Positions 1,178 through 45,484 of a stretch of DNA of 64,000 nt are shown in pieces. The notes beneath the pieces were generated by a model, which saw only the letters and a list, made by a program, of their open reading frames with translations, did not search any database and was not told the DNA's origin. The DNA is from an uncultured virus (IMG/VR IMGVR_UViG_3300037307_000895) (lineage: Duplodnaviria > Heunggongvirae > Uroviricota > Caudoviricetes). The stretch lies in the IMG/VR virus record IMGVR_UViG_3300037307_000895, one strand, 5' to 3'. The translations under genes and the position numbers were made by a program. The number at the start of each line of letters is the position of its first letter. Positions within the stretch are counted from its first letter, which is position 1.

Positions 1178-1209
1178 TTTGGTGGATTCAAAAAGTCACC
1201 GTATCTTTG
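1178..1209 (+). promoter_or_regulatory. Bacteroidetes-type promoter of the His/Phe/Trp tRNA operon
   Basis: TTTG-N20-TATCTTTG; near-identical copies at 21323 and 23753. Confidence 0.75.
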
Positions 1210-1242
1210 TGAAACAAATAAACAAATAAAAATATAATAGTC

Positions 1243-1341
1243 ATGTCATACGTTAGCAAACATAAACATTTTAGTAAGTTCCATTTTTGGTTTATCACCA
1301 AGAGTTCAGGAGCTATTGCTGATTTGTTTTATGACGAATAA
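1243..1341 (+). CDS. attenuator leader peptide (His/Phe/Trp-rich)
   Basis: MSYVSKHKHFSKFHFWFITKSSGAIADLFYDE; contains GAGTTCAGG complementary to the terminator 5' arm. Confidence 0.8.
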   Translation: MSYVSKHKHFSKFHFWFITKSSGAIADLFYDE

Positions 1342-1366
1342 CGTGATTTAACAAAAGTAATAGGTG

Positions 1367-1398
1367 AAACCCTGAACTCAAAAAGTTCAGGGTTTTTT
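1367..1398 (+). terminator. intrinsic terminator (attenuator)
   Basis: AAACCCTGAACT-caaaa-AGTTCAGGGTTT then T tract. Confidence 0.85.
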
Positions 1399-1409
1399 AT
1401 TGCTAAATT

Positions 1410-1592
1410 TTGATGATTATGAAAACAATAAAACTAATCGCGAAAGCGAAGTTGAATATAAAGTCTCTCAAGGAAAAAAATAATAAATCAGAACTTCTGA
1501 TTGAAGAAAGTTGGTTAAAGTATCTTGAGAACAAAAGAAGAGAAGAGATAAAAGATAGGTCACTTATCATAGATAAAATACCTGTCATGTAA
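1410..1592 (+). CDS. small hypothetical protein
   Basis: 60-aa ORF between the attenuator and the first tRNA. Confidence 0.4.
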   Translation: MMIMKTIKLIAKAKLNIKSLKEKNNKSELLIEESWLKYLENKRREEIKDRSLIIDKIPVM

Positions 1593-1595
1593 TAT

Positions 1596-1686
1596 GGTGT
1601 CGTTGGTCCGAGTGGTCGAAGGAATCTGGCTGTGAACCAGAATGAGTGAACAACAAACAACACGGGTTCGAACCCCGTACGACACC
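1596..1686 (+). tRNA. tRNA-His(GUG), encoded G-1, long variable region
   Basis: GTGTCGT/ACGACAC acceptor, TCTGG-CTGTGAA-CCAGA, TTCGAAC T-loop. Confidence 0.85.
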
Positions 1687-1692
1687 CAAAAT

Positions 1693-1764
1693 GGAGACGG
1701 TAGCTCAGAGGGTAGAGCAACGGCAGAAAACCGTGTGTCGTTGGTTCGATTCCAGCCCTCTCCA
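1693..1764 (+). tRNA. tRNA-Phe(GAA)-like, atypical
   Basis: 4-bp anticodon stem ACGG-CAGAAAA-CCGT, A33, bulge in acceptor stem. Confidence 0.6.
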
Positions 1765-1774
1765 CGAAACATAA

Positions 1775-1847
1775 GGTGCGGTATCTCAGTTGGTAGAGCG
1801 TGGGCCTGAAGAGCCCAGCGTCGGCGGTTCGAATCCGTCCCGCACCA
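1775..1847 (+). tRNA. tRNA-Phe(GAA)
   Basis: GGTGCGG/CCGCACC, TGGGC-CTGAAGA-GCCCA. Confidence 0.9.
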
Positions 1848-1857
1848 CTAAAAATAT

Positions 1858-1933
1858 GGTAAACAAGCTAACTTAGTAGAAGCGTTGGTCTGAAAAACCA
1901 AAGGATCCAGAGCGTAACTGGAGTTTACCACCA
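1858..1933 (+). tRNA. tRNA-Phe(GAA), non-canonical T-loop, encoded CCA
   Basis: GGTAAAC/GTTTACC, TTGGT-CTGAAAA-ACCAA, TCCAG-AGCGTAA-CTGGA. Confidence 0.75.
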
Positions 1934-1938
1934 AATAT

Positions 1939-2013
1939 GGAGTTTGTAGCTTAGTTGGTTAAAGCGTCAGTTTGTGGCACTGAAGAGCGTGGGTTCGAAT
2001 CCCATCAAACTCC
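1939..2013 (+). tRNA. tRNA-His(GUG), encoded G-1
   Basis: GAGTTTG/CAAACTC, TCAGT-TTGTGGC-ACTGA. Confidence 0.9.
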
Positions 2014-2021
2014 CAAAACAT

Positions 2022-2105
2022 ACGGGCACTCAAGTGGTGTGACACGCAGACTCCAAATCTGTCCTGATGGTTAAAGTGTTGTGGGTTCGACTCCTACTGT
2101 CCGTG
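2022..2105 (+). tRNA. tRNA-Trp(CCA), atypical D and variable regions
   Basis: ACGGGCA/TGTCCGT, GCAGA-CTCCAAA-TCTGT. Confidence 0.75.
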
Positions 2106-2111
2106 CTAAAT

Positions 2112-2182
2112 ACGGGTATGGTGTAACGGTAACATTACGGTCTCCAAAACCGCAGATCTAGGTTCGAATCCTGGTACCCGTA
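2112..2182 (+). tRNA. tRNA-Trp(CCA)
   Basis: ACGGGTA/TACCCGT, CGGT-CTCCAAA-ACCG. Confidence 0.9.
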
Positions 2183-2195
2183 CAAATAAATAATT

Positions 2196-2918
2196 ATGAG
2201 ATATTTAATAGGCATACAACCAACAGGTAAACTCACAATAGGCAACTATTTAGGTTGTTTAAAGAAGGGTTTGAGGCTTCAGGAAGAAGGTCATGATGTA
2301 ACCTTTTTAATAGCCAACTATCACTCTTTAACTACTGATAGTTACACTGATGTGACTGAACAAGAGTTGAGAAGACTTGGTTGTAAGAATATTAAAAGAC
2401 AGACTCCTGAATATACTGAGTTATTTTTCAAGTTATCTTGTAAATTAAACTTGGGAACATTGTTAAAAATGCCTCAGTATAAAGATAAAAAGGATGATGT
2501 AGAATTTGATTTAGGTTTATTATTATATCCTGTTTTAATGGCAGCTGATATCATAATAAATGACCCTGATGTAGTAATTGTAGGTAAAGATCAAGTGGCT
2601 CACTTAGATTTGTGTAATGACATTTCTAAGAGGTTCAATGGTAAATACTACAAATATGAAATGGGTGATGTTGATAAGATTATGTCTTTAATTGACCCAA
2701 CAAAAAAAATGTCAAAATCTTTGGGTGAAAGGCATGTTCTTTATATCTTTGATGAAAATTATGAGGCGAAGATAAAAAAGGCAAATATGAATGAGGAAGG
2801 AACAGAAAATATAAAAAAGATAGGATTAGGAATTGGAGTAGATGTAGAAAAATATACAATGAATGTAGACTTGAAAAAGGCTATATCAGAAAAAATGAAT
2901 GAATTGTTTAATATATAA
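2196..2918 (+). CDS. trpS: tryptophanyl-tRNA synthetase (compact, 240 aa)
   Basis: GIQPTGKLTIGNYLG (HIGH-like), YPVLMAADI, VGKDQ, KMSKS. Confidence 0.93.
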   Translation: MRYLIGIQPTGKLTIGNYLGCLKKGLRLQEEGHDVTFLIANYHSLTTDSYTDVTEQELRRLGCKNIKRQTPEYTELFFKLSCKLNLGTLLKMPQYKDKKDDVEFDLGLLLYPVLMAADIIINDPDVVIVGKDQVAHLDLCNDISKRFNGKYYKYEMGDVDKIMSLIDPTKKMSKSLGERHVLYIFDENYEAKIKKANMNEEGTENIKKIGLGIGVDVEKYTMNVDLKKAISEKMNELFNI

Positions 2919-2921: not shown

Positions 2922-3275
2922 ATGAAAATTAGAAAGGTATTTGAGTTAGTAGATTATGAGGAAGTAGATTTATGGAGACCGATAGGACAATATTGGAAAA
3001 CTAATGAAATGGATTCCGTGGAAATAAAAAAATTGTGTAAAATTTTTCCACAATTAAGAAAGCCACATGAAAATGAAAAAGGGTTTACGGTTAAAACTAA
3101 ACTCATTTATGATAGTAAGGATGGTAGAGTGGATATAGATATATTAAAAAATGATGATGAATGGTTTTTTGTTAAGGTTATAAAAGGTGATGTGTTATAT
3201 GGTAAAACAAATTACTATAAATGTGACCAATTTGAAGGATTAATAAAATTAATAAAAGAAAAAATTATAAAATGA
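2922..3275 (+). CDS. hypothetical phage protein
   Basis: N-terminus MKIRKVFE; C-terminal YYKCDQFEGL; TAATATATA upstream. Confidence 0.6.
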   Translation: MKIRKVFELVDYEEVDLWRPIGQYWKTNEMDSVEIKKLCKIFPQLRKPHENEKGFTVKTKLIYDSKDGRVDIDILKNDDEWFFVKVIKGDVLYGKTNYYKCDQFEGLIKLIKEKIIK

Positions 3276-3331
3276 CAAACATTAAAAACATAAAGAAAAC
3301 TAAAAAACGAATACGAGTGGTTCGATGGTAA
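3272..3331 (+). CDS. attenuator leader peptide (Lys-rich)
   Basis: MTNIKNIKKTKKRIRVVRW; ATGA overlap with the upstream stop; GAGTGGTTCG pairs with the terminator arm. Confidence 0.75.
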   Translation: MTNIKNIKKTKKRIRVVRW

Positions 3332-3351: not shown

Positions 3352-3389
3352 AACCCGAATCACTCTAAAAAGATGATTCGGGTTTTTTT
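3352..3389 (+). terminator. intrinsic terminator (attenuator)
   Basis: AACCCGAATCA...TGATTCGGGTT plus T tract. Confidence 0.85.
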
Positions 3390-3393
3390 ATTT

Positions 3394-3487
3394 GCTCTCG
3401 TTCGCTTAGTCAGATCCAAAGCAGCTGGCTTTTAACCAGCAGAGGTAACCAAGTCCTCGACCGTAGGTTTGAATCCTACCGGGAGCA
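3394..3487 (+). tRNA. tRNA-Lys(UUU) with long variable arm
   Basis: GCTCTCG/CGGGAGC, GCTGG-CTTTTAA-CCAGC, GAGG/CCTC variable stem. Confidence 0.8.
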
Positions 3488-3497
3488 CAAAACATAT

Positions 3498-3571
3498 TCC
3501 CCCGTAGCAAACAGGTTGTATTGCAACGGTCTTTTAAACCGTAGGGTCTGGTTCAATTCCAGACGGGGGAA
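3498..3571 (+). tRNA. tRNA-Lys(UUU)
   Basis: TCCCCCG/CGGGGGA, ACGGT-CTTTTAA-ACCGT. Confidence 0.9.
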
Positions 3572-3572
3572 C

Positions 3573-3660
3573 TAATCTAGGAGTTGTGGGTTCGAGTCCC
3601 ACCAGGCCCACAAATTTTTTAAAATGGGCTTGTAACTCAACTGGCAGAGTACTAGACTTT
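3573..3660 (+). tRNA. circularly permuted tRNA, probably Lys(UUU): 3' half 3573-3610, 5' half 3626-3660
   Basis: Joined halves give GGGCTTG/CAGGCCC, ACTC/GAGT, CTAGA-CTTT|TAA-TCTAG and GTGGG-TTCGAGT-CCCAC. Confidence 0.75.
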
Positions 3661-3732
3661 GGATTCATATGATAATGGTTAGTCAATTCGGCTCTTACCC
3701 GAAGAGTCTCGGTTCGAATCCGAGTGGATCCA
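3661..3732 (+). tRNA. tRNA-Lys(CUU)
   Basis: GGATTCA/TGGATCC, TTCGG-CTCTTAC-CCGAA. Confidence 0.88.
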
Positions 3733-3771
3733 CTGTTGTATAGGTAGAGTGCCTTTCTTAATATATAGTAT

Positions 3772-8887: not shown

Positions 8888-8918
8888 TTTGGTATAATTA
8901 AAAAAAGTCGTATCTTTG
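8888..8918 (+). promoter_or_regulatory. Bacteroidetes-type promoter of the Ser/Arg tRNA operon
   Basis: TTTG-N19-TATCTTTG; TAATATATA also at 8941. Confidence 0.75.
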
Positions 8919-8953: not shown

Positions 8954-9019
8954 ATGAAAATTAGAAATACAAATACAAGTTCGTCACGTAGTTCAAACAG
9001 CTCGAAGATTCGAAGTTGA
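8954..9019 (+). CDS. attenuator leader peptide (Ser/Arg-rich)
   Basis: MKIRNTNTSSSRSSNSSKIRS; AGATTCGA complementary to the terminator arm. Confidence 0.8.
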   Translation: MKIRNTNTSSSRSSNSSKIRS

Positions 9020-9046: not shown

Positions 9047-9079
9047 AAAACCTCGAATCTAAAAAATTCGAGGTTTTTT
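9047..9079 (+). terminator. intrinsic terminator (attenuator)
   Basis: AAAACCTCGAAT...ATTCGAGGTTTT plus T tract. Confidence 0.85.
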
Positions 9080-9090
9080 GTTTTTTATAC

Positions 9091-9163
9091 GGTTCCATCG
9101 TTCAACTGGATAGGACTTCGGACTACGAATCCGATAATGAGAGTTCAAATCTCTCTGGAACTT
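9091..9163 (+). tRNA. tRNA-Arg(ACG)
   Basis: GGTTCCA/TGGAACT, TCGGA-CTACGAA-TCCGA. Confidence 0.9.
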
Positions 9164-9168
9164 CAAAT

Positions 9169-9256
9169 GGAGGGACGCAGTAGACAGAGCTACCCCGTCT
9201 TGAAAACGGCTAGGACGTAATCATCCGTCGTAAGGGTTGGACTCCCTTTCCCTCCG
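9169..9256 (+). tRNA. tRNA-Ser(UGA), atypical D/T loops
   Basis: GGAGGGA/TCCCTCC, CCGT-CTTGAAA-ACGG, long variable arm. Confidence 0.7.
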
Positions 9257-9302
9257 CACTTTGGGTTGTAGGTGACTTCGGGCCATAAGGAACCTTCAAT
9301 AA

Positions 9303-9391
9303 GGAGAGGTGGCAGAGTTAGGTTTATTGCACCGGTCTTGAAAACCGGAGGCCCTTAGCGGGGCCCGTGGGTTCGAATCCCACCCTCTCCT
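9303..9391 (+). tRNA. tRNA-Ser(UGA)
   Basis: GGAGAGG/CCTCTCC, CCGGT-CTTGAAA-ACCGG. Confidence 0.92.
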
Positions 9392-9398
9392 CAAAAAT

Positions 9399-9474
9399 GT
9401 TCCCGTATCAGCCTAGTCTTCGAAACTAGAAACTGTAATGGATGAAAATGTGGGTTCGACCCCCACCGGGAATT
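9399..9474 (+). tRNA. tRNA-Arg(UCG)-like, rearranged D-arm
   Basis: GTTCCCG/CGGGAAT, CTAGT-CTTCGAA-ACTAG; D-loop-like TAATGG lies after the anticodon arm. Confidence 0.65.
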
Positions 9475-9480
9475 CAAAAT

Positions 9481-9715
9481 ATTCAGGTAGTTTAACGGAT
9501 AAAACAGTCCTAAAACGTACGGATAGTCTTGAAGAAAGACGGGTTTTAACTTGCTACCGGAGGCATTCAATTTATGGTTGTGTATCAACTGTTGTAAGTC
9601 CAAAGGGTGTGAGGTTCGATCTGAATGGTTTACGGATGCACTGAGAAACACTCAGGAAGCGCGTTTCCAAGGACGATTTGTAAAACTTTTGTGGGTTCGA
9701 TTTCCATCCTGAATA
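9481..9715 (+). ncRNA. tRNA scaffold with ~158-nt insert in the anticodon loop
   Basis: ATTCAGG/CCTGAAT, D-arm GTTT/AAAC, GTCCT..insert..AGGAC, T-arm GTGGG-TTCGATT-TCCAT. Confidence 0.6.
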
Positions 9716-9721
9716 CAAATT

Positions 9722-9806
9722 GGAAGATTGTCAGAGTGGTCTATTGTACTTCTTTGCTAAAGAAGCGGGTGTAACAGCCCCACAGGTTCGAATCCTGTAT
9801 CTTCCG
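9722..9806 (+). tRNA. tRNA-Ser(GCU)
   Basis: GGAAGAT/ATCTTCC, CTTCT-TTGCTAA-AGAAG. Confidence 0.9.
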
Positions 9807-9815
9807 CATAAAATT

Positions 9816-9906
9816 GGAAGTGTACCCAATGTTGGCAAAGGGGACGGTTTGCTAAACCGTTAGGTCGGTTAATCCCGGCGAGTGGGGTCGGCACCCACCA
9901 CTTCCG
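9816..9906 (+). tRNA. tRNA-Ser(GCU)
   Basis: GGAAGTG/CACTTCC, ACGGT-TTGCTAA-ACCGT, variant T-loop. Confidence 0.8.
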
Positions 9907-9911
9907 CAAAT

Positions 9912-10000
9912 GGTGGGATACCCAAGTGGTTATAAGGGGCTTGCTTGGAAAGCAAGTAGGTCGTTAATTCGGCGCATGGGTTCGAATCCCATTCTCACCG
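9912..10000 (+). tRNA. tRNA-Ser(GGA)
   Basis: GGTGGGA/TCTCACC, CTTGC-TTGGAAA-GCAAG. Confidence 0.9.
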
Positions 10001-10015
10001 CTAAAAAATAAAATT

Positions 10016-12949: not shown

Positions 12950-13605
12950 AATCATATCCGAAAATAGAACATTATAATAAGGCTCCCTTTGGAGAACATT
13001 GCTATGCCTTCTACAAACATGATGGTTCTAACTTCCGTGCTGAGTGGGGTAGAAAAAGAGGTTGGTATAAATGGGGTACAAGAAATGTAATGATTGATAA
13101 AAATACTCCTTTTTATGGAGAAGCTATTGATATCTTTTTGAATAAATATGGTCAAAATTTAGATGATGTATTCAGAATTGAATATCCTAAAGTTGATAGT
13201 TTTGTTGTCTTTGGTGAATTTTTAGGTCCGAATTCTTTCGCTGGCAAACACGTTGAAACTGATAATATGGATGTAATTATATTTGATGTTAATCAACACA
13301 AAAGAGGTTTCTTACCACCTAAAGAATTCATTGAAAATTTTGGTCATCTTGATATTCCTAAAATTATCTATCAAGGAGAATACAACCACGAATTAATCAA
13401 AAAGGTAAAAGCCAACCAATTTGGATTAGAAGAAGGTGTAGTCTGTAAAGGTGTGATTAAAACGAAAAAAGAAGGTGAAGTTGTTTGGATGAATAAAATA
13501 AAAACCAATCAATGGATCGAAAAAGTAAAAATATTGTATGGTGAGAAGGCACTGATTGAAGAATTCAATAGTGACTCTAAAATATTAAAAGAATATGAAT
13601 ACTAA
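12946..13605 (+). CDS. ATP-dependent RNA ligase-like nucleotidyltransferase
   Basis: Motif I KHDGSN, FGEF, IFDV, EEGVVCK, KIK. Confidence 0.75.
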   Translation: MKSYPKIEHYNKAPFGEHCYAFYKHDGSNFRAEWGRKRGWYKWGTRNVMIDKNTPFYGEAIDIFLNKYGQNLDDVFRIEYPKVDSFVVFGEFLGPNSFAGKHVETDNMDVIIFDVNQHKRGFLPPKEFIENFGHLDIPKIIYQGEYNHELIKKVKANQFGLEEGVVCKGVIKTKKEGEVVWMNKIKTNQWIEKVKILYGEKALIEEFNSDSKILKEYEY

Positions 13606-14320
13606 AAAGAGAATATTCAGTTTAAGGGGTATATCACCTGATTATCCAAGAATACCACATTTAGATAAAAAAATATCTAATATGACACACGATGATATTC
13701 TTTCTGATAATTCTATTGTCTATCCCATAGACGGATATGTTCAAGAAAAAATAGATGGTGCTAACTTGGGTGTTTCATGGTATAAAAATGGACCGATTGT
13801 TAGAAATAGAAATAATATCTTAAAGAAAGGTTATTCTAAAATACACACACCTGCAAAAGAGCAATTCAAATCTACATGGAATTGGGTTCATGATAATAGA
13901 AAAGATATTCAAATAATATCTGAAAAATTAATGTCTGAGATAACAATTTACGGCGAGTGGATGATTGCACAACATTCTATTGAATATAATAAACTCCCTG
14001 ATTGGTTTATCGCTTATGATATATGGGTAGTAGAAGATAATAAATTTTTGTCTCCAAAGAAAGTGGAAGAACTACTTTCTAAGACAAACATATCTTATAT
14101 TAAACCACATAAGACAGTATTAAATGATACTAATGATGTGATTAGGTGGTCAGAAATGCCATCTGATTATAGAAATGGTGTTCGTGAGGGAATTGTTATT
14201 AAAACTGTGGAAGGTGATTATATTAAAGATACTTATAAGGTAGTTAATAAGCACTTTGTTCGTAGAGAAGATTTTAATGAAAAATTAATTAGAAATAAAT
14301 TAATAATTAATGATTATTAA
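13595..14320 (+). CDS. ATP-dependent RNA ligase (Rnl2-like)
   Basis: QEKIDGAN, YGEW, AYDI, REGIVIK, YKVVN. Confidence 0.85.
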   Translation: MNTKKRIFSLRGISPDYPRIPHLDKKISNMTHDDILSDNSIVYPIDGYVQEKIDGANLGVSWYKNGPIVRNRNNILKKGYSKIHTPAKEQFKSTWNWVHDNRKDIQIISEKLMSEITIYGEWMIAQHSIEYNKLPDWFIAYDIWVVEDNKFLSPKKVEELLSKTNISYIKPHKTVLNDTNDVIRWSEMPSDYRNGVREGIVIKTVEGDYIKDTYKVVNKHFVRREDFNEKLIRNKLIINDY

Positions 14321-21322: not shown

Positions 21323-21354
21323 TTTGGTGGTTTAAAAAAGTCATCGTATCTTTG
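21323..21354 (+). promoter_or_regulatory. Bacteroidetes-type promoter of the Tyr/Glu tRNA operon
   Basis: TTTG-N20-TATCTTTG. Confidence 0.75.
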
Positions 21355-21372: not shown

Positions 21373-21468
21373 ATGAACAACAGAATAGAAATATCAGTTA
21401 ACGGAGCTTCTTATGAAGCTTATTATTATGAGGAGGAAACTCGCTCAGTTGAACTGGCATTTCTATAA
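21373..21468 (+). CDS. attenuator leader peptide (Tyr/Glu-rich)
   Basis: MNNRIEISVNGASYEAYYYEEETRSVELAFL; AGTTGAACTGG pairs with the terminator arm. Confidence 0.85.
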   Translation: MNNRIEISVNGASYEAYYYEEETRSVELAFL

Positions 21469-21490
21469 TGTAACAGATAGAAATTCTTAT

Positions 21491-21521
21491 AACCCGGTTC
21501 AACTAATGAACCGGGTTTTTT
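21491..21521 (+). terminator. intrinsic terminator (attenuator)
   Basis: AACCCGGTTCA-actaa-TGAACCGGGTT plus T tract. Confidence 0.88.
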
Positions 21522-21525
21522 ATTT

Positions 21526-21607
21526 GGGTCAATCGCATAGCGGCAATTGCTGGGGACTGTAAATCCCCTCTCTTCGGAGTTCGTAGGTTCGAGTCCTACT
21601 TGGCCCA
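21526..21607 (+). tRNA. tRNA-Tyr(GUA)
   Basis: GGGGA-CTGTAAA-TCCCC, canonical. Confidence 0.92.
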
Positions 21608-21615
21608 CACAATTT

Positions 21616-21688: not shown

Positions 21689-21697
21689 CAATTATAT

Positions 21698-21779: not shown

Positions 21780-21787
21780 CAACAAAT

Positions 21788-21859: not shown

Positions 21860-21867
21860 CAAAATAT

Positions 21868-21953: not shown

Positions 21954-21959
21954 CAAAAT

Positions 21960-24741: not shown

Positions 24742-25260
24742 ATGAGAAAACTACAAAAAATTTGTATAAATTACGGAGTAAATGGTATTTTAGATAAAAA
24801 TCTAATAGACATATCAATGAATGAGTTGAAATTGATAACTAATCAAACCCCAACAATAACAAGGAGCAAAAAAGACATATCTAATTTCAAACTAAGAAAA
24901 GGAATGGAATTGGGTGTAAAAGTAACTCTGAGAGGTAGGAAAATGTATCAATTTTTAGATCATCTAATAGATTGTTTATTAAATTCATACGAATTTAAAG
25001 GATTAAATGCTAATTCATTTGATAAGCATGGAAATTACTCAATGGGTATTAAAGACCAAAGAATATTTACTGAAATTAATATAGATAATATCAAAAATGT
25101 TAATGGAATGGACATTACATTTGTAACAAACTGTAATAAAAGTGATTCTTTAATTTTACTAAATAAATTAAACCTACCATTTACAGTCGATAGAGAATTC
25201 AATATTACTAAAAGTGATAGAATAATAAAGTTTAATAAAAAATATAAATCAAGTGAGTAA
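24742..25260 (+). CDS. rplE: 50S ribosomal protein uL5 homolog
   Basis: KLQKICINYGV, SKKDISNFKLRKGMELGVKVTLRG, SFDKHGNYSMGIKDQRIFTEI, GMDITFVT. Confidence 0.9.
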   Translation: MRKLQKICINYGVNGILDKNLIDISMNELKLITNQTPTITRSKKDISNFKLRKGMELGVKVTLRGRKMYQFLDHLIDCLLNSYEFKGLNANSFDKHGNYSMGIKDQRIFTEINIDNIKNVNGMDITFVTNCNKSDSLILLNKLNLPFTVDREFNITKSDRIIKFNKKYKSSE

Positions 25261-30182: not shown

Positions 30183-30995
30183 ATGTATATGAAACAGAAA
30201 GACTCACTTGGCGATCGTATGAAATTTTACGAATCGCAAACCTGTGTGGAAAGATTACTTCCACTAATTCCAATTGTTGCCAGACTTGATGGTAAAGGAT
30301 TTTCTAAATTCACTAAAGGTTTGAAAAGACCTTATGATGAAAGACTGTCTAATCTGATGGTTGAAACCACTAAATACTTGGTTAAAGAAACCAACGCAAA
30401 CTGTGGTTATACTCAATCTGATGAAATTACTCTTGTTTGGTATTCTGAAGATCTCGAATCTCAAGTTTACTTCGATGGTAGAATTATGAAGATGGTTTCA
30501 GACCTAGCATCTATGTGCTCTGTCTTTTTCAACTCTAAACTGCCAGAATATCTTCCTGAAAAGTCAGATAAACTTCCAAGATTCGATTGTAGAGTATTCA
30601 GTGTTCCAACTCTAACTGAAGCAGTTAATGCTTTTTATTGGAGAGAAAAAGATGCTACCAAGAACTCTATTTCCATGTCTGCTCAATCTTTTTATTCTCA
30701 CAAGGAATTGATGAATAAAAACAGTGGTGAAAAACAAGAAATGCTTTTTCAAAAAGGTGTTAATTGGAATGATTATCCTTCTTTCTTCAAAAGAGGAACT
30801 TATGTTCAACGAAAGAGAGTGTTGACTAAATTTAGCGACGAAGAACTATCTAAACTTCCACCTAAACACAATGCTAGAAAAGATCCTGATTTTGTTGTTG
30901 AAAGATGGGTTATTGATAGAGTAAATCTACCACCACTATCAAAAATTAAGAATCAAGTAGATGTAATCATCTATGGAAAAGATCCGATTGAATAG
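30183..30995 (+). CDS. thg1: tRNA-His guanylyltransferase / Thg1-like protein
   Basis: ARLDGKGFSKFT, YTQSDEITL, FDGR..K, FDCR, WREKDA.KNS. Confidence 0.92.
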   Translation: MYMKQKDSLGDRMKFYESQTCVERLLPLIPIVARLDGKGFSKFTKGLKRPYDERLSNLMVETTKYLVKETNANCGYTQSDEITLVWYSEDLESQVYFDGRIMKMVSDLASMCSVFFNSKLPEYLPEKSDKLPRFDCRVFSVPTLTEAVNAFYWREKDATKNSISMSAQSFYSHKELMNKNSGEKQEMLFQKGVNWNDYPSFFKRGTYVQRKRVLTKFSDEELSKLPPKHNARKDPDFVVERWVIDRVNLPPLSKIKNQVDVIIYGKDPIE

Positions 30996-32568: not shown

Positions 32569-33333
32569 ATGACTATCTTTTTGGGAGACATACATGGAAA
32601 TTTTAAATACGTCAAATGGGCTATTCAAAATAGAAAATTGACGAATTGTAATATTGTGCAAGTTGGTGACTTTGGAATTGGAACTTTACCAGAGTACGAT
32701 GAGGATATTTTAGTGAGGTTTAATGAATTTCTCACAGAACATAATGTCACTATGTATGTAATTCGTGGAAATCACGATGACCCCAAATTCTTCAAGGGAA
32801 ATCATATATTCAGTCATTTAAAATTATTACCGGATTACACACAATTAGAGATTGATGGATATAATTTTCTATTCGTTGGAGGCGCCGTTTCTATTGACAG
32901 AAATTTTAGTTTAGAAAAAATGCAAATATCTGCTAGCTACGGTCAAAATAGACCTCTCTATTGGTTTGATGAAGTCTTTGTATTAGATGAAGAAAAAATC
33001 AAAAATATCAAGGGTGTAGATATCATTGTTACACACACTGCGCCTGAATGGTGTCATCCTGATAATAGAAATGGTCTCGGTGATTTTGTGATGGAGTTTG
33101 TGTATAACGACAGACAACTAGAAACAGATTTATTAGAAGAAAGAAAATTGGTTAGTAAAATGTTTAATATGTTAAAGGAAAATGGAAACCAAATTAAAAA
33201 ACATTATTATGGACATTTTCATAGAAGTGAAGTTACACTAAATGGAATGACTGAACACATTTTACTTGGAATCAATGAAATGAGAACTCTTGAAGATAGA
33301 AATGATGATTATTATGAAAAACTATTTAACTAA
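32569..33333 (+). CDS. calcineurin-like metallophosphoesterase
   Basis: GDIHG, GDFG, RGNHD, THTAP, GHFH. Confidence 0.9.
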   Translation: MTIFLGDIHGNFKYVKWAIQNRKLTNCNIVQVGDFGIGTLPEYDEDILVRFNEFLTEHNVTMYVIRGNHDDPKFFKGNHIFSHLKLLPDYTQLEIDGYNFLFVGGAVSIDRNFSLEKMQISASYGQNRPLYWFDEVFVLDEEKIKNIKGVDIIVTHTAPEWCHPDNRNGLGDFVMEFVYNDRQLETDLLEERKLVSKMFNMLKENGNQIKKHYYGHFHRSEVTLNGMTEHILLGINEMRTLEDRNDDYYEKLFN

Positions 33334-41240: not shown

Positions 41241-41272
41241 TTTGGTAGAAATAAAAAAAGTTTCTATCTTTG
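41241..41272 (+). promoter_or_regulatory. Bacteroidetes-type promoter of the large tRNA operon
   Basis: TTTG-N20-TATCTTTG; TAATATATA at ~41316. Confidence 0.75.
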
Positions 41273-41344: not shown

Positions 41345-41458
41345 ATGAAACTGAATAACAGAAATATGACGATTATGAACCTCAATATGGTGGTGATTAC
41401 ATTATGTAATAGAACCTCATATCCGGGTTTTGCTCATATTCCTGATATTATTGTATAA
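41345..41458 (+). CDS. attenuator leader peptide (Leu/Asn/Arg/Met/Thr/Ile/Val/Cys)
   Basis: MKLNNRNMTIMNLNMVVITLCNRTSYPGFAHIPDIIV; TCCGGGTTT pairs with AGACCCGGA. Confidence 0.8.
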   Translation: MKLNNRNMTIMNLNMVVITLCNRTSYPGFAHIPDIIV

Positions 41459-41479
41459 TAGTTGTTGGAAGTAGTAGTA

Positions 41480-41510
41480 AAGACCCGGAACCAAAAGTTT
41501 CGGGTTTTTT
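41480..41510 (+). terminator. intrinsic terminator (attenuator)
   Basis: AAGACCCGGAAC..GTTTCGGGTTTT plus T tract. Confidence 0.85.
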
Positions 41511-41516
41511 ATTTAT

Positions 41517-41600
41517 GGCTCTGTGGCGAAATTGGTACGCGTCAGACTTAAAATCTGATGGACTGAAAAGTCCGTGTCGGTTCGACCCCGACCAGAGCCA
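41517..41600 (+). tRNA. tRNA-Leu(UAA)
   Basis: TCAGA-CTTAAAA-TCTGA. Confidence 0.92.
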
Positions 41601-41609
41601 CAACAAATT

Positions 41610-41697
41610 GGCTGAGTGGTGGAAGTAAACATGGTAGACACACTAGTCTTAGAAACTAGTACCGAAAGGTGTGAGGGTTCGAGTCCCTCCTTGGTCA
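41610..41697 (+). tRNA. tRNA-Leu(UAG)
   Basis: CTAGT-CTTAGAA-ACTAG. Confidence 0.88.
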
Positions 41698-41709
41698 CAA
41701 CAAAAATAA

Positions 41710-41788
41710 GCCTCCGTAGTCGAGTGTGCCTTCTAAGCATTTAATCGTAACGGAACTGAAAATGTGGGTTCGAATCCCACCGGAGGTT
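41710..41788 (+). tRNA. tRNA-Arg(UCU)-like, rearranged D-arm
   Basis: GCCTCCG/CGGAGGT, GTGC-CTTCTAA-GCAT, CGA/TCG followed by TAACGG. Confidence 0.65.
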
Positions 41789-41793
41789 CAAAT

Positions 41794-41878
41794 GGATGGG
41801 TTGCTTTAGAGGCCGAAAAGTCTGGGCTGTTAACCCAGTGTCGCAAGACCGCCGTGGGTTCGAATCCCACCCCATCCT
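41794..41878 (+). tRNA. tRNA-Asn(GUU), long variable arm
   Basis: CTGGG-CTGTTAA-CCCAG. Confidence 0.85.
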
Positions 41879-41883
41879 CACAT

Positions 41884-41957
41884 TGGAATGTAGCTCAAAT
41901 GGTTAGAGCGCGAAGCTGATACCTTCGAGGTAGTGGGATCGTTACCCGCCATTCCAA
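41884..41957 (+). tRNA. tRNA-Ile(GAU)
   Basis: CGAAG-CTGATAC-CTTCG; variant T-loop. Confidence 0.82.
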
Positions 41958-41959
41958 CA

Positions 41960-42050
41960 AGGGAAAAAATAAAAGAAGAGATAGAAAAATGTGTCTTAGT
42001 GTGTTCTAATTGTCATAGAGAGATACATTACGGTATAATTGATATAGAAA
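41960..42050 (+). pseudogene. HNH endonuclease C-terminal remnant
   Basis: Spacer translates REKIKEEIEKCVLVCSNCHREIH. Confidence 0.6.
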
Positions 42051-42131
42051 CGGCGTGTAACCCTCAATCCTGATAAGATTGCTACGGGTAATTGGTAAGT
42101 GAAAATGCAGGTTCGATTCCTGTCACGCCGA
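42051..42131 (+). tRNA. tRNA-Ile(GAU)-like, rearranged D-arm
   Basis: CGGCGTG/CACGCCG, CAATC-CTGATAA-GATTG, ACCC/GGGT followed by AATTGGTA. Confidence 0.68.
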
Positions 42132-42137
42132 CAAAAT

Positions 42138-42223
42138 TGATCGGTGGCCCGAGTGGCGAAGGGTCCGGCCTGTTAAGCCGACGTAGTAAAATACCACCGT
42201 GGGTTCGAGTCCCACCCGATCAG
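42138..42223 (+). tRNA. tRNA-Asn(GUU), long variable arm
   Basis: CGGC-CTGTTAA-GCCG. Confidence 0.85.
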
Positions 42224-42229
42224 CAATAA

Positions 42230-42314
42230 GCGCGGATGGTTCGAGTGGTCGAAGACGACAGTCTGCAAAACTGTATCCGAAAGGTCATCGTGAGTTCAAA
42301 TCTCACTCCGCGCT
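42230..42314 (+). tRNA. tRNA-Cys(GCA), long variable arm
   Basis: ACAGT-CTGCAAA-ACTGT, U73. Confidence 0.87.
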
Positions 42315-42320
42315 CAACAA

Positions 42321-42397
42321 GCCTTTGTAGCTTTAACTGGTAGAGCACCTGACTTGTAATCAGGGGGTTGCAGGTTCGAGTCCTGTTGAAGGCTCCA
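42321..42397 (+). tRNA. tRNA-Thr(UGU)
   Basis: CCTGA-CTTGTAA-TCAGG, encoded CCA. Confidence 0.92.
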
Positions 42398-42403
42398 ATA
42401 ATT

Positions 42404-42491
42404 GGGTCTATGGTGTAATGGCTAAACATCCTTCCCTTACAAGGAAGAGACGAGAAGTATGATCTTGGTTCGAATCCAAGTAGACCCACCA
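42404..42491 (+). tRNA. tRNA-Val(UAC), long variable region
   Basis: CTTCC-CTTACAA-GGAAG, encoded CCA. Confidence 0.85.
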
Positions 42492-42496
42492 AAAAT

Positions 42497-42579
42497 GCCG
42501 ATGTGGCTCAGTGGCGACAGCAATGGTTTTGTAAACCATCACCGTAAGGTCATCGGGGGTTCGAGTCCCTCCATCGGCT
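42497..42579 (+). tRNA. tRNA-Thr(UGU), long variable arm
   Basis: ATGGT-TTTGTAA-ACCAT. Confidence 0.85.
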
Positions 42580-42588
42580 CAGAAATAG

Positions 42589-42662
42589 AGTCTCATAGCT
42601 CAGTTTGGGAGAGCGCTTCTGTGACATGGAAGAGGCCACCGGTTCGACCCCGGTTGAGACTA
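42589..42662 (+). tRNA. tRNA-Val(GAC)
   Basis: CTTCT-GTGACAT-GGAAG. Confidence 0.85.
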
Positions 42663-42710
42663 CAAATAGTGATGGTGATGATGTAACCCCATCATCCGGG
42701 TTCATCACTA

Positions 42711-42782
42711 TGGAGAGTAGCTCAGTTGGTAGAGCACCGGACTGATTTCCGGTGGTCGATGGTTCGAGTCCATCCTCTCCAA
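42711..42782 (+). tRNA. tRNA-Ile(GAU)-like with 6-nt anticodon loop
   Basis: CCGGA-CTGATT-TCCGG, otherwise canonical. Confidence 0.6.
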
Positions 42783-42788
42783 CAAATT

Positions 42789-43050
42789 AGGGAAGTAACT
42801 CAGTGGCAGAGTATCCCCAGACATGGGGGGAAAGTCGTTAGGTTCGATTCCAGCCTTCCCTACAAATCAACGGTCTGATCAACTGTTGACTGAATGGTTC
42901 GAAACATTCGATTGATTATGGTGTAAAGGGCACACCCGTTTCGTAGGGAGGTTTAAGGTTCGATTCCTTATTAATCAACAAAGTGGGAGATTAAGGGACA
43001 CACTCTGGGTTAAACCCCAGAAATAGATAGGTTCAACTCCTATCCCCACA
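42789..43050 (+). ncRNA. three tRNA-like elements with undetermined anticodons (42789-42862, 42912-42979, 42983-43050)
   Basis: Acceptor stems and TTC T-loops present; anticodon arms aberrant. Confidence 0.5.
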
Positions 43051-43054
43051 AAAT

Positions 43055-43127
43055 GCCGTAGTCGTATAATGGTTGATTACACGCCGTTGGTATCGGTGAG
43101 ATGGCAGTTCGAATCTGCTCTATGGCT
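43055..43127 (+). tRNA. tRNA-Thr(GGU)
   Basis: CGCCG-TTGGTAT-CGGTG. Confidence 0.88.
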
Positions 43128-43239
43128 CTGTAAGCATGGTAGTTGCCCTTGTTTGACTGAAATAGTTTAACCCGCAGATAAGCTAGAAGTAAGGAAAAAA
43201 CAAAAAATCTACTCGTCACTGCGGGAAGTGACGTTTTAT

Positions 43240-43320
43240 GTCCAGATGATGAAATTGGTAAACATACCGGCATGAGAGGCCGGCGCCAAAAGCTTGTAGG
43301 TTCGAATCCTGCTCTGGGCA
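43240..43320 (+). tRNA. tRNA-Leu(GAG)
   Basis: CCGGC-ATGAGAG-GCCGG. Confidence 0.85.
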
Positions 43321-43321
43321 C

Positions 43322-43476
43322 TGATGTTGTGGCGGAATTAGGTATACGCGGGGGTCTGGTTCGATATGATTGATGTTGGGTAAACTCCAATGTCTTCCAC
43401 TCAAGAACGAAAACCGCCGTCTGATGGATAAGTGGATAATGAAGTCAGATTGTGGGTTCGAGTCCCACCAACACAA
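43322..43476 (+). ncRNA. Leu-like tRNA scaffold with an insert replacing the anticodon loop
   Basis: TGTTG/CAACA, GCG..CGC D-arm, ~55-nt insert, GTCTGA/TCAGAT variable stem, canonical T-arm. Confidence 0.5.
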
Positions 43477-43478
43477 AT

Positions 43479-43561
43479 GGATTTGTGGCGAAATTGGTAG
43501 CACGCGCTAGTCTTAGGAACTAGTACCGAAAGGTGTGAGGGTTCGACCCCCTCCAAATCCA
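43479..43561 (+). tRNA. tRNA-Leu(UAG)
   Basis: CTAGT-CTTAGGA-ACTAG. Confidence 0.92.
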
Positions 43562-43569
43562 CTAAAAAT

Positions 43570-43655
43570 GCCGCTGTGAACCGATGTGGTAATGGTGCCT
43601 CCCTCATAAGGAGGTTGGTTTTATCCTATTGCTGGTTCGAGTCCAGCCAGCGGTA
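43570..43655 (+). tRNA. tRNA-Met/Ile2(CAU), long variable region
   Basis: CCTCC-CTCATAA-GGAGG. Confidence 0.82.
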
Positions 43656-43656
43656 C

Positions 43657-43821
43657 ATGAATATAGACTTAGATAAACAAATTGAACTAACAAAGATTGA
43701 GTTAGATTCTTACAAATCAAATAAGTATTCTGCTAAAGAAATTGTTGATTGGTTAGAATCTGTTTATAAATCTTTATTAGAATTAAAAAGGCTCAATGGC
43801 GAAATTGGGAGTACGCGATAG
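43657..43821 (+). CDS. small hypothetical protein inside the tRNA array
   Basis: MNIDLDKQIELTK...; 3' end overlaps tRNA-Leu. Confidence 0.4.
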   Translation: MNIDLDKQIELTKIELDSYKSNKYSAKEIVDWLESVYKSLLELKRLNGEIGSTR

Positions 43822-43874
43822 ACTCAAAATCTATTGGTAGAAATACCGTGTGGGTTCGATGCCCACTTGAGCCA
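43790..43874 (+). tRNA. tRNA-Leu(CAA)
   Basis: ATAGA-CTCAAAA-TCTAT. Confidence 0.9.
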
Positions 43875-43876
43875 CT

Positions 43877-44098
43877 ATGGTTTATGGTGTTAATAAATGT
43901 TTGTATAAAATAATTGGACTAAATGGTGATAAAAAGGTGGGTACTATAAAAGTAGTAGCACACACCAAATTAGAAGCTTATTATTATTGCAAAGACTTAT
44001 TACCAAAACATAATAAATTCGACTATCATCATATAAAATTTGTTGATTGTGAATGTGGTCCGATTTTAGAAAAAAATGATTTAAAAAGAAAGAAATGA
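43877..44098 (+). CDS. hypothetical protein
   Basis: ORF track; its stop overlaps the asn leader ATG. Confidence 0.5.
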   Translation: MVYGVNKCLYKIIGLNGDKKVGTIKVVAHTKLEAYYYCKDLLPKHNKFDYHHIKFVDCECGPILEKNDLKRKK

Positions 44099-44142
44099 AA
44101 ATGATTGTAAATAACAGGAATAATTTAACAGATTCGGTCTGA
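44095..44142 (+). CDS. attenuator leader peptide (Asn/Arg-AGG)
   Basis: MKMIVNNRNNLTDSV; GTCTGAT pairs with ATCAGAT of the terminator. Confidence 0.78.
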   Translation: MKMIVNNRNNLTDSV

Positions 44143-44172
44143 TTGGATATTCCTTGCTAAAAAATACAAGAT

Positions 44173-44200
44173 AACCCATCAGATTTCTGATGGGTTTTTT
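44173..44200 (+). terminator. intrinsic terminator (attenuator of asnS)
   Basis: AACCCATCAGA-tt-TCTGATGGGTT plus T tract. Confidence 0.85.
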
Positions 44201-44228
44201 ATTTAAAAAAAAATTAAAAATTAAAATT

Positions 44229-45407
44229 ATGAAAGGGTGGATTAAATCAATACGTCAATCAAAAAGCTTGATGTTTATTTCAGTAACAGATGGTGTTAAA
44301 GATCATCAATTAACCTTGAAAGAAGGTGAATATGAACTTGAAGGTGAATTAAAAGTAGGTGCTTCATTTACTGCAGAAGGTTATGACTCTATAACACCGA
44401 AAGGGTTCGAAGAATTTGTAGTATCTAAAATGATAATAATTGGAGAATCAGATGATGAATATCCAATACAACCAAAAAGGCACTCATTTGACTTCCTAAG
44501 AACTATACCTGAATTGAGAGGAAGAACAAAAGGATTTCAATCAACTTGGAAGATAAGACATTACTTATCTCAACTAATTCACCAATTTATGTCTGAAAAG
44601 GGATTTTTTCAATATTGGACACCAATTATAACTCAAGCGGATTGTGAAGGAGCTGGTGAAACATTTACTGTTAAGTCTGATTGGTTAGAAGAAAAATTAA
44701 CAGTTTCAGGCCAACTACATGGTGAAGTAGGAATGATGTCTCTTGGAAAAATCTATACTTTTGGACCTTGTTTTAGAGCGGAAAAGTCTGCTACTAAAAA
44801 ACATTTGTCTGAATTTTGGATGTTAGAGCCTGAAATGGCATTCTATTCTTTAGAAGATACTATTTCTTTTTCCGAGGAAATGTTGAAGTATGTATTAACT
44901 CAAATAGTTAAACATGAAGAAGATTTCAAAAGACTTGAGATTGATACTTCTCATATAACATCTATCATAGATAAAGATTGGGTTAAAATTAGATATGAAG
45001 ATGTTTGTAAAGAATTTAAATTAGATTTTGGAGAAGATGTTTCTTCAGAGATTGAGAAGATGATGATAGATAAATATAAATTGCCTATTTATATTACACA
45101 TTGGCCAAAAGATTTGAAACCATTCTATATGAAAAAGTTTGAAGAATATGCTTATTGTTTTGACTTAATTTTTCCAGAAGTTGGTGAATTGATAGGTGGT
45201 TCTGAAAGAGAAGACTCTTATCAAATTCTGAAAGATGAAATGGAGAAAAGTGGATTAGATATGAGTAAGATGGATTGGTATTTAAAAACAAGAAAGTGGG
45301 GCTCGGTTCCACACTCTGGATTTGGACTTGGTTTTGATAGATTAGTAACATTTGTTTGTAAACTACAAAAGATTCATGATTCGATACCCTTCCCAATAGG
45401 GTATTGA
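44229..45407 (+). CDS. asnS: asparaginyl-tRNA synthetase
   Basis: DCEGAGETF, LTVSGQLHGE, FGPCFRAEKS, HLSEFWMLEPEMAF, GELIGGSERE, PHSGFGLGFDR. Confidence 0.95.
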   Translation: MKGWIKSIRQSKSLMFISVTDGVKDHQLTLKEGEYELEGELKVGASFTAEGYDSITPKGFEEFVVSKMIIIGESDDEYPIQPKRHSFDFLRTIPELRGRTKGFQSTWKIRHYLSQLIHQFMSEKGFFQYWTPIITQADCEGAGETFTVKSDWLEEKLTVSGQLHGEVGMMSLGKIYTFGPCFRAEKSATKKHLSEFWMLEPEMAFYSLEDTISFSEEMLKYVLTQIVKHEEDFKRLEIDTSHITSIIDKDWVKIRYEDVCKEFKLDFGEDVSSEIEKMMIDKYKLPIYITHWPKDLKPFYMKKFEEYAYCFDLIFPEVGELIGGSEREDSYQILKDEMEKSGLDMSKMDWYLKTRKWGSVPHSGFGLGFDRLVTFVCKLQKIHDSIPFPIGY

Positions 45408-45412
45408 TATAA

Positions 45413-45484
45413 GGTCCCGTAACTTAACGGAAAAGTCACATCCTCCTAAGATGTTGTATATGGGTTCGAATCCCATCGGGACTT
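45413..45484 (+). tRNA. tRNA-Arg(CCU)
   Basis: GGTCCCG/CGGGACT, ACATC-CTCCTAA-GATGT. Confidence 0.9.

Follow-up and report, generated by a model that had tools for sequence, protein, structure and literature searches.

The window examined here, a stretch of 64,000 nucleotides (nt) of an uncultured Caudoviricetes virus (IMG/VR record IMGVR_UViG_3300037307_000895), contains 40 tRNA genes according to ARAGORN, all of them on the + strand, and Rfam at its gathering thresholds also returns 40 tRNA matches and nothing else. Outside the tRNA blocks the guanine-plus-cytosine (GC) content is about 24-34%. An earlier note, made from the sequence alone, had proposed that every tRNA array is held behind a leader-peptide attenuator whose control codons correspond to the tRNAs downstream. 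The seven units that it described, here named U1 to U7, were found where it had placed them, with leader open reading frames (ORFs) that start at 1243, 3272, 8954, 21373, 23802, 41345 and 44095, all with ATG, and encode 32, 19, 21, 31, 23, 37 and 15 aa, respectively. In every unit the ORF is followed by a canonical intrinsic terminator, made of a hairpin of -13 to -17 kcal/mol and a T-run, with two such terminators in tandem in U5; a scan of the plus strand of the window found 13 terminators, 8 of which belong to the seven units. Transfer RNA genes come first after six of the seven units and an aminoacyl-tRNA synthetase (aaRS) gene only after U7; no amino-acid biosynthesis gene was seen with Pfam downstream of any unit. 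The parts of the units are as follows (dG, free energy of pairing; cognate, leader residues whose amino acid is served by the array).

1178..1209, + strand: U1 promoter-like site (TTTG ... TATCTTTG), read by eye, with recurrence of a 28-nt block
1243..1341, + strand: U1 leader ORF MSYVSKHKHFSKFHFWFITKSSGAIADLFYDE with His/Phe/Trp control codons, 9/31 cognate vs 2.6 expected
1302..1311, + strand: U1 antiterminator 5' strand, pairing with 1369-1378, dG -12.4
1366..1401, + strand: U1 intrinsic terminator, hairpin alone -16.4 kcal/mol
1597..2183, + strand: U1 array, His, Phe x3, His, (Trp-like 2022-2106), Trp (ARAGORN, Rfam, lowered threshold)
3272..3331, + strand: U2 leader MTNIKNIKKTKKRIRVVRW, its start overlapping the stop of ORF 2922-3275 (ATGA), 5/18 Lys vs 1.5 expected
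3315..3330, + strand: U2 antiterminator 5' strand, dG -14.0, formed in the truncated fold
3352..3390, + strand: U2 terminator (terminator scan)
3394..3733, + strand: U2 array, Lys(ttt) x2, Lys(ctt) (ARAGORN)
8888..8918, + strand: U3 promoter-like site (pattern search)
8954..9019, + strand: U3 leader MKIRNTNTSSSRSSNSSKIRS with Ser and CGN-Arg control codons, 11/20 cognate vs 2.2, 10/11 strictly decodable by the array anticodons
9005..9018, + strand: U3 antiterminator 5' strand, dG -11.9
9047..9083, + strand: U3 terminator (terminator scan)
9091..10001, + strand: U3 array, Arg(acg), Ser(tga), Ser(gct) x2, Ser(gga) and uncalled tRNA-like segments (ARAGORN)
21323..21354, + strand: U4 promoter-like site (shared block)
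21373..21468, + strand: U4 leader MNNRIEISVNGASYEAYYYEEETRSVELAFL, Tyr/Glu, 10/30 cognate vs 3.6 expected
21449..21458, + strand: U4 antiterminator 5' strand, dG -10.7, pairing lost two codons past EEE
21489..21524, + strand: U4 terminator (terminator scan)
21526..22146, + strand: U4 array, Tyr, Glu, Tyr, Glu, Glu and tRNA-like segments (ARAGORN)
23753..23784, + strand: U5 promoter-like site (shared block)
23802..23873, + strand: U5 leader MKQINNISAIAQIGGGAGASSCG, Ile-ATA/Ala/Gly, 9/22 cognate, 13/22 counting Ile
23867..23877, + strand: U5 antiterminator 5' strand, dG -9.6
23898..23960, + strand: U5 tandem terminators, 23898-23924 and 23931-23956 (terminator scan)
23958..24631, + strand: U5 array, low-threshold Ile(tat), two more tRNA-like genes, Gly(gcc) x2, Ala(tgc) (ARAGORN)
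41241..41272, + strand: U6 promoter-like site, read by eye
41345..41458, + strand: U6 leader MKLNNRNMTIMNLNMVVITLCNRTSYPGFAHIPDIIV, Leu/Asn/Met/Thr/Ile/Val/Cys, 24/36 cognate vs 14.2, 24/24 strictly decodable
41421..41432, + strand: U6 antiterminator 5' strand, dG -16.5
41479..41514, + strand: U6 terminator (terminator scan)
41517..43875, + strand: U6 array, 15 ARAGORN tRNAs (Leu, Asn, Ile, Asn, Cys, Thr, Val, Thr, Val, ?, Thr, Leu, Leu, Met, Leu) and uncalled tRNA-like segments
44095..44142, + strand: U7 leader MKMIVNNRNNLTDSV, its start overlapping the stop of ORF 43877-44098; the sole Arg codon, AGG, matches tRNA-Arg(cct)
44138..44152, + strand: U7 antiterminator 5' strand, the weakest, an interrupted helix, dG -8.5
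44169..44205, + strand: U7 terminator (terminator scan)
45413..45485, + strand: tRNA-Arg(cct) of U7 (ARAGORN)

Units can be nested on the same strand: U2 (Lys) lies downstream of U1, and U7, with its asparaginyl-tRNA synthetase (AsnRS) and tRNA-Arg(cct) genes, downstream of U6. The gene for ribosomal protein L5 (rpL5) follows the U5 array with no terminator between them. The claim that every array is controlled stood for 38 of the 40 ARAGORN tRNAs, which are found behind a unit, and failed for two: tRNA-Met 21231-21303, preceded by a 63-aa ORF and no terminator, and tRNA-Gly(tcc) 30011-30084, which has a promoter-like box of its own 11 nt upstream. The note had also given each unit a promoter or a coupled upstream gene. 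The coupling is plain in U2 and U7, where the leader start overlaps the stop of the upstream ORF as ATGA. Sites of the form TTTG...TAnnTTTG, which resembles the Bacteroidetes promoter consensus, precede U1, U3, U4, U5 and U6; they are putative promoters, assigned by reading the sequence against that consensus. A 28-nt block at 1190-1217 (U1) recurs nearly identically at 21335 (U4) and 23765 (U5), giving 3 matches where 0 are expected, and the sites of U3 and U6 are more diverged. A search for Bacteroidetes-type promoters with fixed spacing matches only U3 among the units, because the spacing varies between them.

Among the 5040 possible assignments of the seven leaders to the seven arrays, the true one is the single best, with 69 cognate residues in total against a permuted mean of 24.9 (reached by 1/5040, the true assignment itself), in line with the codon match described in the earlier note. 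The background expectation for cognate residues ranges from 0.5 to 14.2 across units. The weakest match is that of U2 (binomial p=0.014), since Lys is common in the AT-rich DNA of the window. The leader of U7 has 1/14 cognate residues when tRNA-Arg(cct) is considered alone and 5/14 (1.6 expected) when the AsnRS gene is counted, and the figure of 13/22 for U5 includes the low-threshold tRNA-Ile(tat) at 23958-24048; the orthologous array in the phage LR756502 opens with a tRNA-Ile(tat) called at default settings.

LR756502 (642 kb) is, together with LR756501 (735 kb) and LR756503, among the closest DNA relatives of the window, all of them uncultured huge phages. Al-Shayeb et al. 2020 (PMC7162821) place genomes of more than 634 kb in the 'Mahaphage' clade and predict Bacteroidetes hosts for them; the huge phages of that study have as many as 67 tRNAs and 15 aaRS in a genome. 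A blastn comparison of the arrays with a phage collection matched three or four uncultured huge phages and otherwise, at the level of the tRNAs only, unrelated phages; no cultured model phage was identified. The sequencing runs found to contain this stretch are all DNA runs, from freshwater metagenomes, and none is an RNA run. To extend the analysis, all tRNAs were located in LR756502 and LR756501, and further units were taken from IMG/VR, from thirteen loci anchored on the tryptophanyl-tRNA synthetase (TrpRS) gene and from the arrays of three contigs of about 500 kb (L-numbers below are our labels for loci). The 13 units contributed by L015-L030 come from ten of these 16 loci, and the remaining six have no detected unit; AsnRS as a search anchor led to 3 viral loci only and added no unit.

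A blind pipeline, which requires a terminator with a tRNA within 700 nt and takes as leader the longest ATG ORF ending near the terminator, found 18 units in the window, LR756502 and LR756501, and in each genome the true pairing is the maximum. Pooled, these units give 209 matches against a permuted mean of 82.9 and a maximum of 149 (0/100,000 permutations reach the true value); in one case a terminator and tRNA came without a short ORF (L007, Met). For the test across relatives suggested by the earlier note, 45 non-redundant units were pooled from the window, LR756501, LR756502 and IMG/VR contigs. They score 512/1242 against a permuted mean of 216.5 (sd 20.4, maximum 311), a value reached by 0/100,000 permutations even though two wrongly auto-picked ORFs (the second unit of L031, and L042) were kept as misses.

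The correspondence is specific to the reading frame and reaches the level of single isoacceptors. In the frame set by the ATG, 214/497 residues are cognate, vs 99/478 and 63/478 in the other two, and the anticodons of the arrays strictly decode 299/340 of the cognate codons. For Arg, the leaders use CGN in 13/14 cases before arrays having only acg, tcg or gcg anticodons and AGR in 6/6 cases before arrays having only tct or cct; these counts include orthologous units and so are not all independent. In the long ORFs of the window, CGN makes up 11% of Arg codons.

The note had further predicted that arrays for Asp, Gln and Pro, which are absent from the window, would be preceded by leaders rich in those residues. 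This was borne out in the relatives, the genomes to which the comparison applies. In LR756502 the leader MTTSFQQQQQQQINRTD precedes four tRNA-Gln (L005) and ...VVVDQDQPDTTE... precedes Pro x2 and Asp x3. In the closest relative contig (91% TrpRS identity), ...QVQPTQQPDQDPD... is found before Pro/Asp/Gln tRNAs (L031) and MRIVISYQQQQQQIDRTD before five tRNA-Gln; L032, L036 and L043 agree with the same prediction. The U1 leader itself has orthologs, recognizable by a KHKHF..KWF core, in LR756502, LR756501 and IMG/VR contigs. Where array membership is shuffled between phages, leader content tracks array content, as in the following pairs.

L011: leader SKHSKHFSSSSKWF, array Trp/His/His/Phe/Lys/Ser
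L024: leader RSWSWRRSSSSSR, array Ser/Arg(tct)/Trp
L026: leader ITRIIRIRRR, array Ile/Arg x3
L026: leader HIHKHQIWH (no Phe), array Trp/His/His
L043: leader NNNNQQQYQQNNY, array Asn/Gln/Tyr
L044: leader PQFQFVVPF, array Pro/Phe/Val
L041: leader TADCADE, array Asp/Cys/Glu/Ala
L033: leader KKKKK, array Lys x5
L042: leader LSLSLSLSLSLS, array Leu/Ser

We then probed the RNA structures. RNAduplex pairs each leader with the 5' arm of its own terminator through 7-12 bp in 7/7 units, and folding confirmed that mutually exclusive terminator and antiterminator structures form. The minimum free energy (MFE) folds of the full-length RNAs contain the terminator, usually together with a hairpin within the leader; in RNAs truncated before the 3' arm of the terminator, the 5' arm pairs instead with the leader segment. 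Stem sequences differ between loci while the pairing is kept, as had been noticed, and leader segment and terminator arm covary within a unit: over 30 units the duplex with the own arm has a mean of -10.9 kcal/mol vs -7.5 kcal/mol with the other 29 arms (0/100,000 permutations reach this), and the own arm ranks first in 10/30 units and among the top five in 21/30. Conservation in related huge phages, with this covariation, extends to LR756501, LR756502 and the IMG/VR contigs.

The position of the control codons was analyzed by masking the RNA codon by codon with a ribosome that leaves it free from 13 nt after the first base of the A-site codon, a size assumed from typical ribosome footprints. 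For this analysis only, the leaders of the second unit of L031 (poly-Q) and of L042 (LS-repeat) were replaced by those chosen by eye. In the seven units of the window the antiterminator can form with the A-site at or before the last control codon and is lost 1-4 codons later (1-3 codons past it in U1). Over 44 units, cognate codons occupy 444/826 of the A-site positions compatible with the antiterminator vs 69/357 of the positions after its loss (Fisher p=1.5e-29). Pairing is lost within 0-2 codons of the final cognate codon in 35/44, and the distance from the stop codon to the 3' end of the terminator is 48-75 nt, with a median of 55. In 13/44 units, as in trp, a leader hairpin hides the antiterminator strand of the ribosome-free RNA.

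Taken together, these observations indicate, with a probability that we put at about 0.8, that the units are ribosome-mediated (leader-peptide) transcription attenuators gating blocks of phage tRNA genes and, in two cases, also an aaRS gene. Folding, permutation, conservation with covariation and the Asp/Gln/Pro leaders all favour this reading, which was that of the earlier note. The units have the features of the class, namely a 5' short ORF, enrichment in cognate codons, a terminator, an antiterminator and appropriately placed control codons; they depart from its classical scope, the regulation of biosynthesis or aaRS genes, in having tRNA genes as the usual first genes. In the mechanism that we infer, transcription from a Bacteroidetes-type promoter, or read-through from upstream, would produce an RNA opening with an ORF of 15-37 codons, the first two thirds of which are enriched in codons of the tRNAs encoded downstream. 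If these were decoded slowly, the ribosome would remain upstream of the 7-12 nt segment, which would capture the 5' arm of the terminator and let the polymerase enter the tRNA block. If they were decoded fast, the ribosome would cover the segment and reach the stop codon, 48-75 nt before the terminator end, and the terminator would fold and end transcription. Each unit would be a closed negative-feedback loop on one subset of tRNAs, because read-through would make the very tRNAs whose shortage stalls the ribosome. Each tRNA set is therefore probably made, in this scheme, only when ribosomes decode its codons slowly.

Several observations weigh against this interpretation. In 30/44 units the antiterminator folds by default when no ribosome is present, and such units, unlike trp, would be ON if untranslated. 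One of the 45 units (L031, at 1063) shows no antiterminator of >=6 nt in MFE folds, and the antiterminator helix of U7 is weak and interrupted. The stop codons of U1 and U6 are placed 25-30 nt past the antiterminator strand, so that a terminating ribosome would not cover the strand and the hairpin internal to the leader would have to do so. The Ser codons in the leaders of L011 and L025 are not TCG, the codon of the only tRNA-Ser called there (cga). Over all the DNA examined, in which some loci overlap, 355/413 array-strand tRNAs were assigned to an auto-detected unit and 58/413 were not; several singletons of relatives lack a unit. The strict terminator rule misses weaker terminators, such as one in L033 around 1340-1375, and at least one unassigned group, in L033, does have a leader. 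In L016 (3900-4335), a 90%-identical relative, a His/Phe/Trp array directly follows a class-II aaRS-like gene whose C-terminus reads ...GGGEYDGGIGFAIGIDRILLIN by eye, and no leader was found in the 400 nt examined. Finally, a stall caused by amino-acid starvation rather than by tRNA shortage would not be helped by more tRNA.

Other genes in the window, identified by Pfam and NCBIfam searches, bear on what the units might respond to.

2196..2918, + strand: TrpRS-like catalytic-domain protein, 240 aa (PF00579, 5e-38; trpS 126.7 bits, under the 176.75 cut-off), in the same transcription direction as U1
13595..14320: RNA ligase (Pfam)
24742..25260, + strand: rpL5 (Pfam/NCBIfam)
30183..30995: Thg1-family enzyme (Pfam)
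32569..33333: metallophosphoesterase (Pfam)
44229..45407, + strand: AsnRS (TIGR00457, 392 bits vs the 342.6 cut-off; alignment from residue 11-13); the frame is open from 44190 and the ATG at 44229 is the probable start

A role in counter-defence is compatible with supply feedback: the attenuators would sense the loss of host tRNAs to anticodon nucleases, or to other tRNA-targeting immunity, and switch on replacements. The RNA ligase, Thg1-family enzyme and metallophosphoesterase, which we take to be of kinds that participate in tRNA repair, fit this idea, as does the specificity of the channels for isoacceptors down to the codon, which would suit a response to cleavage of a single tRNA species. 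Yet the sequence has no feature that would mark a nuclease as the signal, the channels jointly cover all amino acids and not just the few tRNAs known as nuclease targets, and plain homeostatic feedback accounts for the same anatomy. We consider this role rather unlikely, and host anticodon nucleases as the trigger, which the earlier note had proposed, would be pure conjecture, albeit one compatible with the RNA-ligase and Thg1-family genes. The layout also equals that of attenuators of amino-acid operons, so the units might report uncharged tRNA during amino-acid starvation, in the manner of trp, his or thr, with the tRNA blocks riding along with aaRS and other genes. U7 would control AsnRS, the transcripts of U1 and U5 would enter the TrpRS-like gene and rpL5, respectively, and U3 has a full-length match to the Rfam Thr_leader model, sub-threshold at 29.4 bits vs 55. 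However, tRNAs are the sole products of most units, extra tRNA is no cure for a shortage of amino acids, and biosynthetic genes follow none of the units seen, all of which makes starvation sensing improbable.

The match by itself shows no more than complementarity of codons and anticodons, so the codon runs could instead bind tRNA anticodons directly, in a ribosome-independent switch resembling a T-box. Against this, no T-box or other riboswitch matches even at E<=5, the enrichment is limited to the frame set by the ATG, with an in-frame stop at a constant distance from the terminator, and each leader carries many different codons rather than one specifier; such a switch is very improbable. 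Short ATG ORFs are frequent at 29% GC, and Lys, Asn and Ile are common residues, so that ordinary upstream terminators could in principle be preceded by ORFs arising by chance in AT-rich DNA. The permutation, frame, position, covariation and cross-genome tests contradict coincidence, to which we give almost no credence.

With ribosome-mediated attenuation as the preferred reading, the units can be compared with known systems. Enterobacterial leader-peptide attenuators include multivalent ones, such as thr (Thr/Ile) and ilvGMEDA (Ile/Leu/Val), as well as trp, his, leu and pheA. The phage units share with them a short leader in which the regulatory codons of a single amino acid, or of several, form runs, and mutually exclusive antiterminator and terminator hairpins between which the ribosome position would decide; they differ in regulating tRNAs rather than biosynthetic enzymes, in their predicted Bacteroidetes host, and in that two thirds of them default to the antiterminator when untranslated. 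None of the Rfam leader families (Thr_leader, His_leader, Trp_leader, Leu_leader and others) reaches its gathering threshold in the window, the best match being Thr_leader, with 29.4 bits in U3 (gathering score 55, whole model aligned) and 23.6 bits in U1. The pheST attenuator of E. coli is a case in which a leader peptide controls an aminoacyl-tRNA synthetase operon. U7, with NNRNN before AsnRS, would be its direct analogue, a translation gene gated by a leader rich in cognate codons; unlike pheST, the phage device is applied to tRNA blocks and about nine times per genome. T-box riboswitches also monitor the state of one particular tRNA and set the read-through of a terminator ahead of translation-related genes, but they bind the tRNA directly, via a single specifier codon and the conserved T-box sequence, and need no translation; the T-box covariance model has no match at E<=5 in the 64-kb window.

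The long tRNA operon of Anabaena PCC 7120, as presented in the main texts of two papers (PMC8421152, PMC10272220), is likewise a spare array that is off by default and on under translational stress. It differs in being bacterial and not viral and in being controlled by a repressor, TrcR, and the strings 'attenuat' and 'leader peptide' are absent from those main texts. Al-Shayeb et al. 2020 (PMC7162821), on the same phage clade, give an inventory of translation genes rather than their regulation, and neither 'leader' nor 'attenuat' occurs in the main text of that paper. The full-text literature, subscription-only papers being outside the scope of the search, yielded no account of leader-peptide attenuation of tRNA genes, in line with the earlier note, which was aware of none for tRNA arrays or phages. 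The units would represent, as far as can be read from sequence, a classical mechanism of attenuation with a new regulated object, tRNA blocks, and a new logic.

Phage tRNAs are usually discussed as a static supplement to codon usage or as decoys against tRNA-cleaving defences. Here the DNA appears to specify a regulatory logic, in which tRNA genes would be switched by how fast their own codons are decoded. If true, this would be the first example of attenuation controlling tRNA supply, with feedback on the tRNA and not on the amino acid. It would explain the sorting of tRNA genes into isotype blocks in these huge phages, and the leaders, at least 45 distinct ones with varied combinations of amino acids, would form a natural set of sensors for codons and isoacceptors. 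The window has seven channels for 18 amino acids; two more, one for Pro/Asp/Gln and one for Gln, are found in the closest relative contig. The broadest view, to which we give even odds, is that of a virus with a complete, codon-resolved homeostat of the tRNA pool of the cell, whose roughly nine channels would cover all 20 amino acids, each dosing its own block (plus an aaRS or ribosomal protein), with leader and array co-evolving to the level of isoacceptors and the whole doubling as a sensor of host tRNA-targeting immunity. A leader may also let one read, from sequence alone, which tRNAs a block supplies, including tRNA-like genes that finders miss: the ATA codons of the U5 leader point to tRNA-Ile(tat), called by ARAGORN only at low threshold.

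Many tRNAs of the arrays are unusual. Nine, at 1597-1687, 3394-3488, 21960-22045, 41794-41879, 42138-42224, 42230-42315, 42404-42491, 42497-42580 and 43570-43656, are 84-95 nt long and belong to isotypes that normally have a short variable loop (His, Lys, Glu, Asn, Cys, Val, Thr, Met), and still match the whole Rfam tRNA model; in tRNA-His 1597-1687 some 20 extra nt are found in the variable region. Fourteen T-loop motifs of the GGTTCGA type lie within the arrays outside the default ARAGORN calls, and Rfam calls two of them as tRNA. The segments concerned (3580-3620, 9395-9475, 21868-21955, 22055-22146, 23958-24223, 42060-42130, 42789-43051 and 43330-43475) are probably non-canonical or degenerate tRNA genes. 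Some are called by ARAGORN only at a lowered threshold, among them Trp(cca) 2022-2106, Ser(tga) 9169-9257, Ile(tat) 23958-24048 and Ala(tgc) 24146-24223. The tRNA at 42711-42783 scores 66 bits with Rfam and has an anticodon loop that is not of 7 nt (6 or 8 nt by eye); the 'anticodon' that ARAGORN gives for it has 2 bases. Between two tRNA-Lys genes, a partial tRNA-like element is covered by a match (3556-3684) to the Y RNA-like YrlA family, below threshold at 36.1 bits vs a gathering score of 69 (E=3e-4). In the relatives, a pair of tRNAs with anticodon CTA (amber-reading, labelled Pyl by ARAGORN) and tRNAs with odd anticodon loops are found outside any unit (L014 1586-1739, in LR756501, and L012 1911-2099).

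Protein-coding sequences also occur within and beside the units. A 57-aa Lys/Glu-rich ORF with no Pfam match (1419-1592) separates the U1 terminator from the first tRNA of the array, and several relatives have a gap of 180-650 nt between the terminator and the first called tRNA. After the Lys array there is a 290-aa DUF559/REase-like endonuclease (3772-4644, Pfam), and within the U6 array, at 41960-42060, a short remnant reading ...CVLVCSNCHREIHYG... is HNH-motif-like by eye; homing endonucleases beside tRNA arrays are discussed in the main text of PMC8421152. The window further encodes a NadR-like protein and glycosyltransferases (Pfam/NCBIfam), together with two TonB-dependent receptor-like outer-membrane proteins (15647-18118, - strand; 33552-35483, + strand), here in a phage genome. 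Finally, the region 11440-11555 contains a promoter-like box, an 8-codon ORF (MRRNYKHK) and a strong terminator (11527-11549), followed by small protein genes from 11574, and could be another attenuator-like unit, one that does not control tRNAs.

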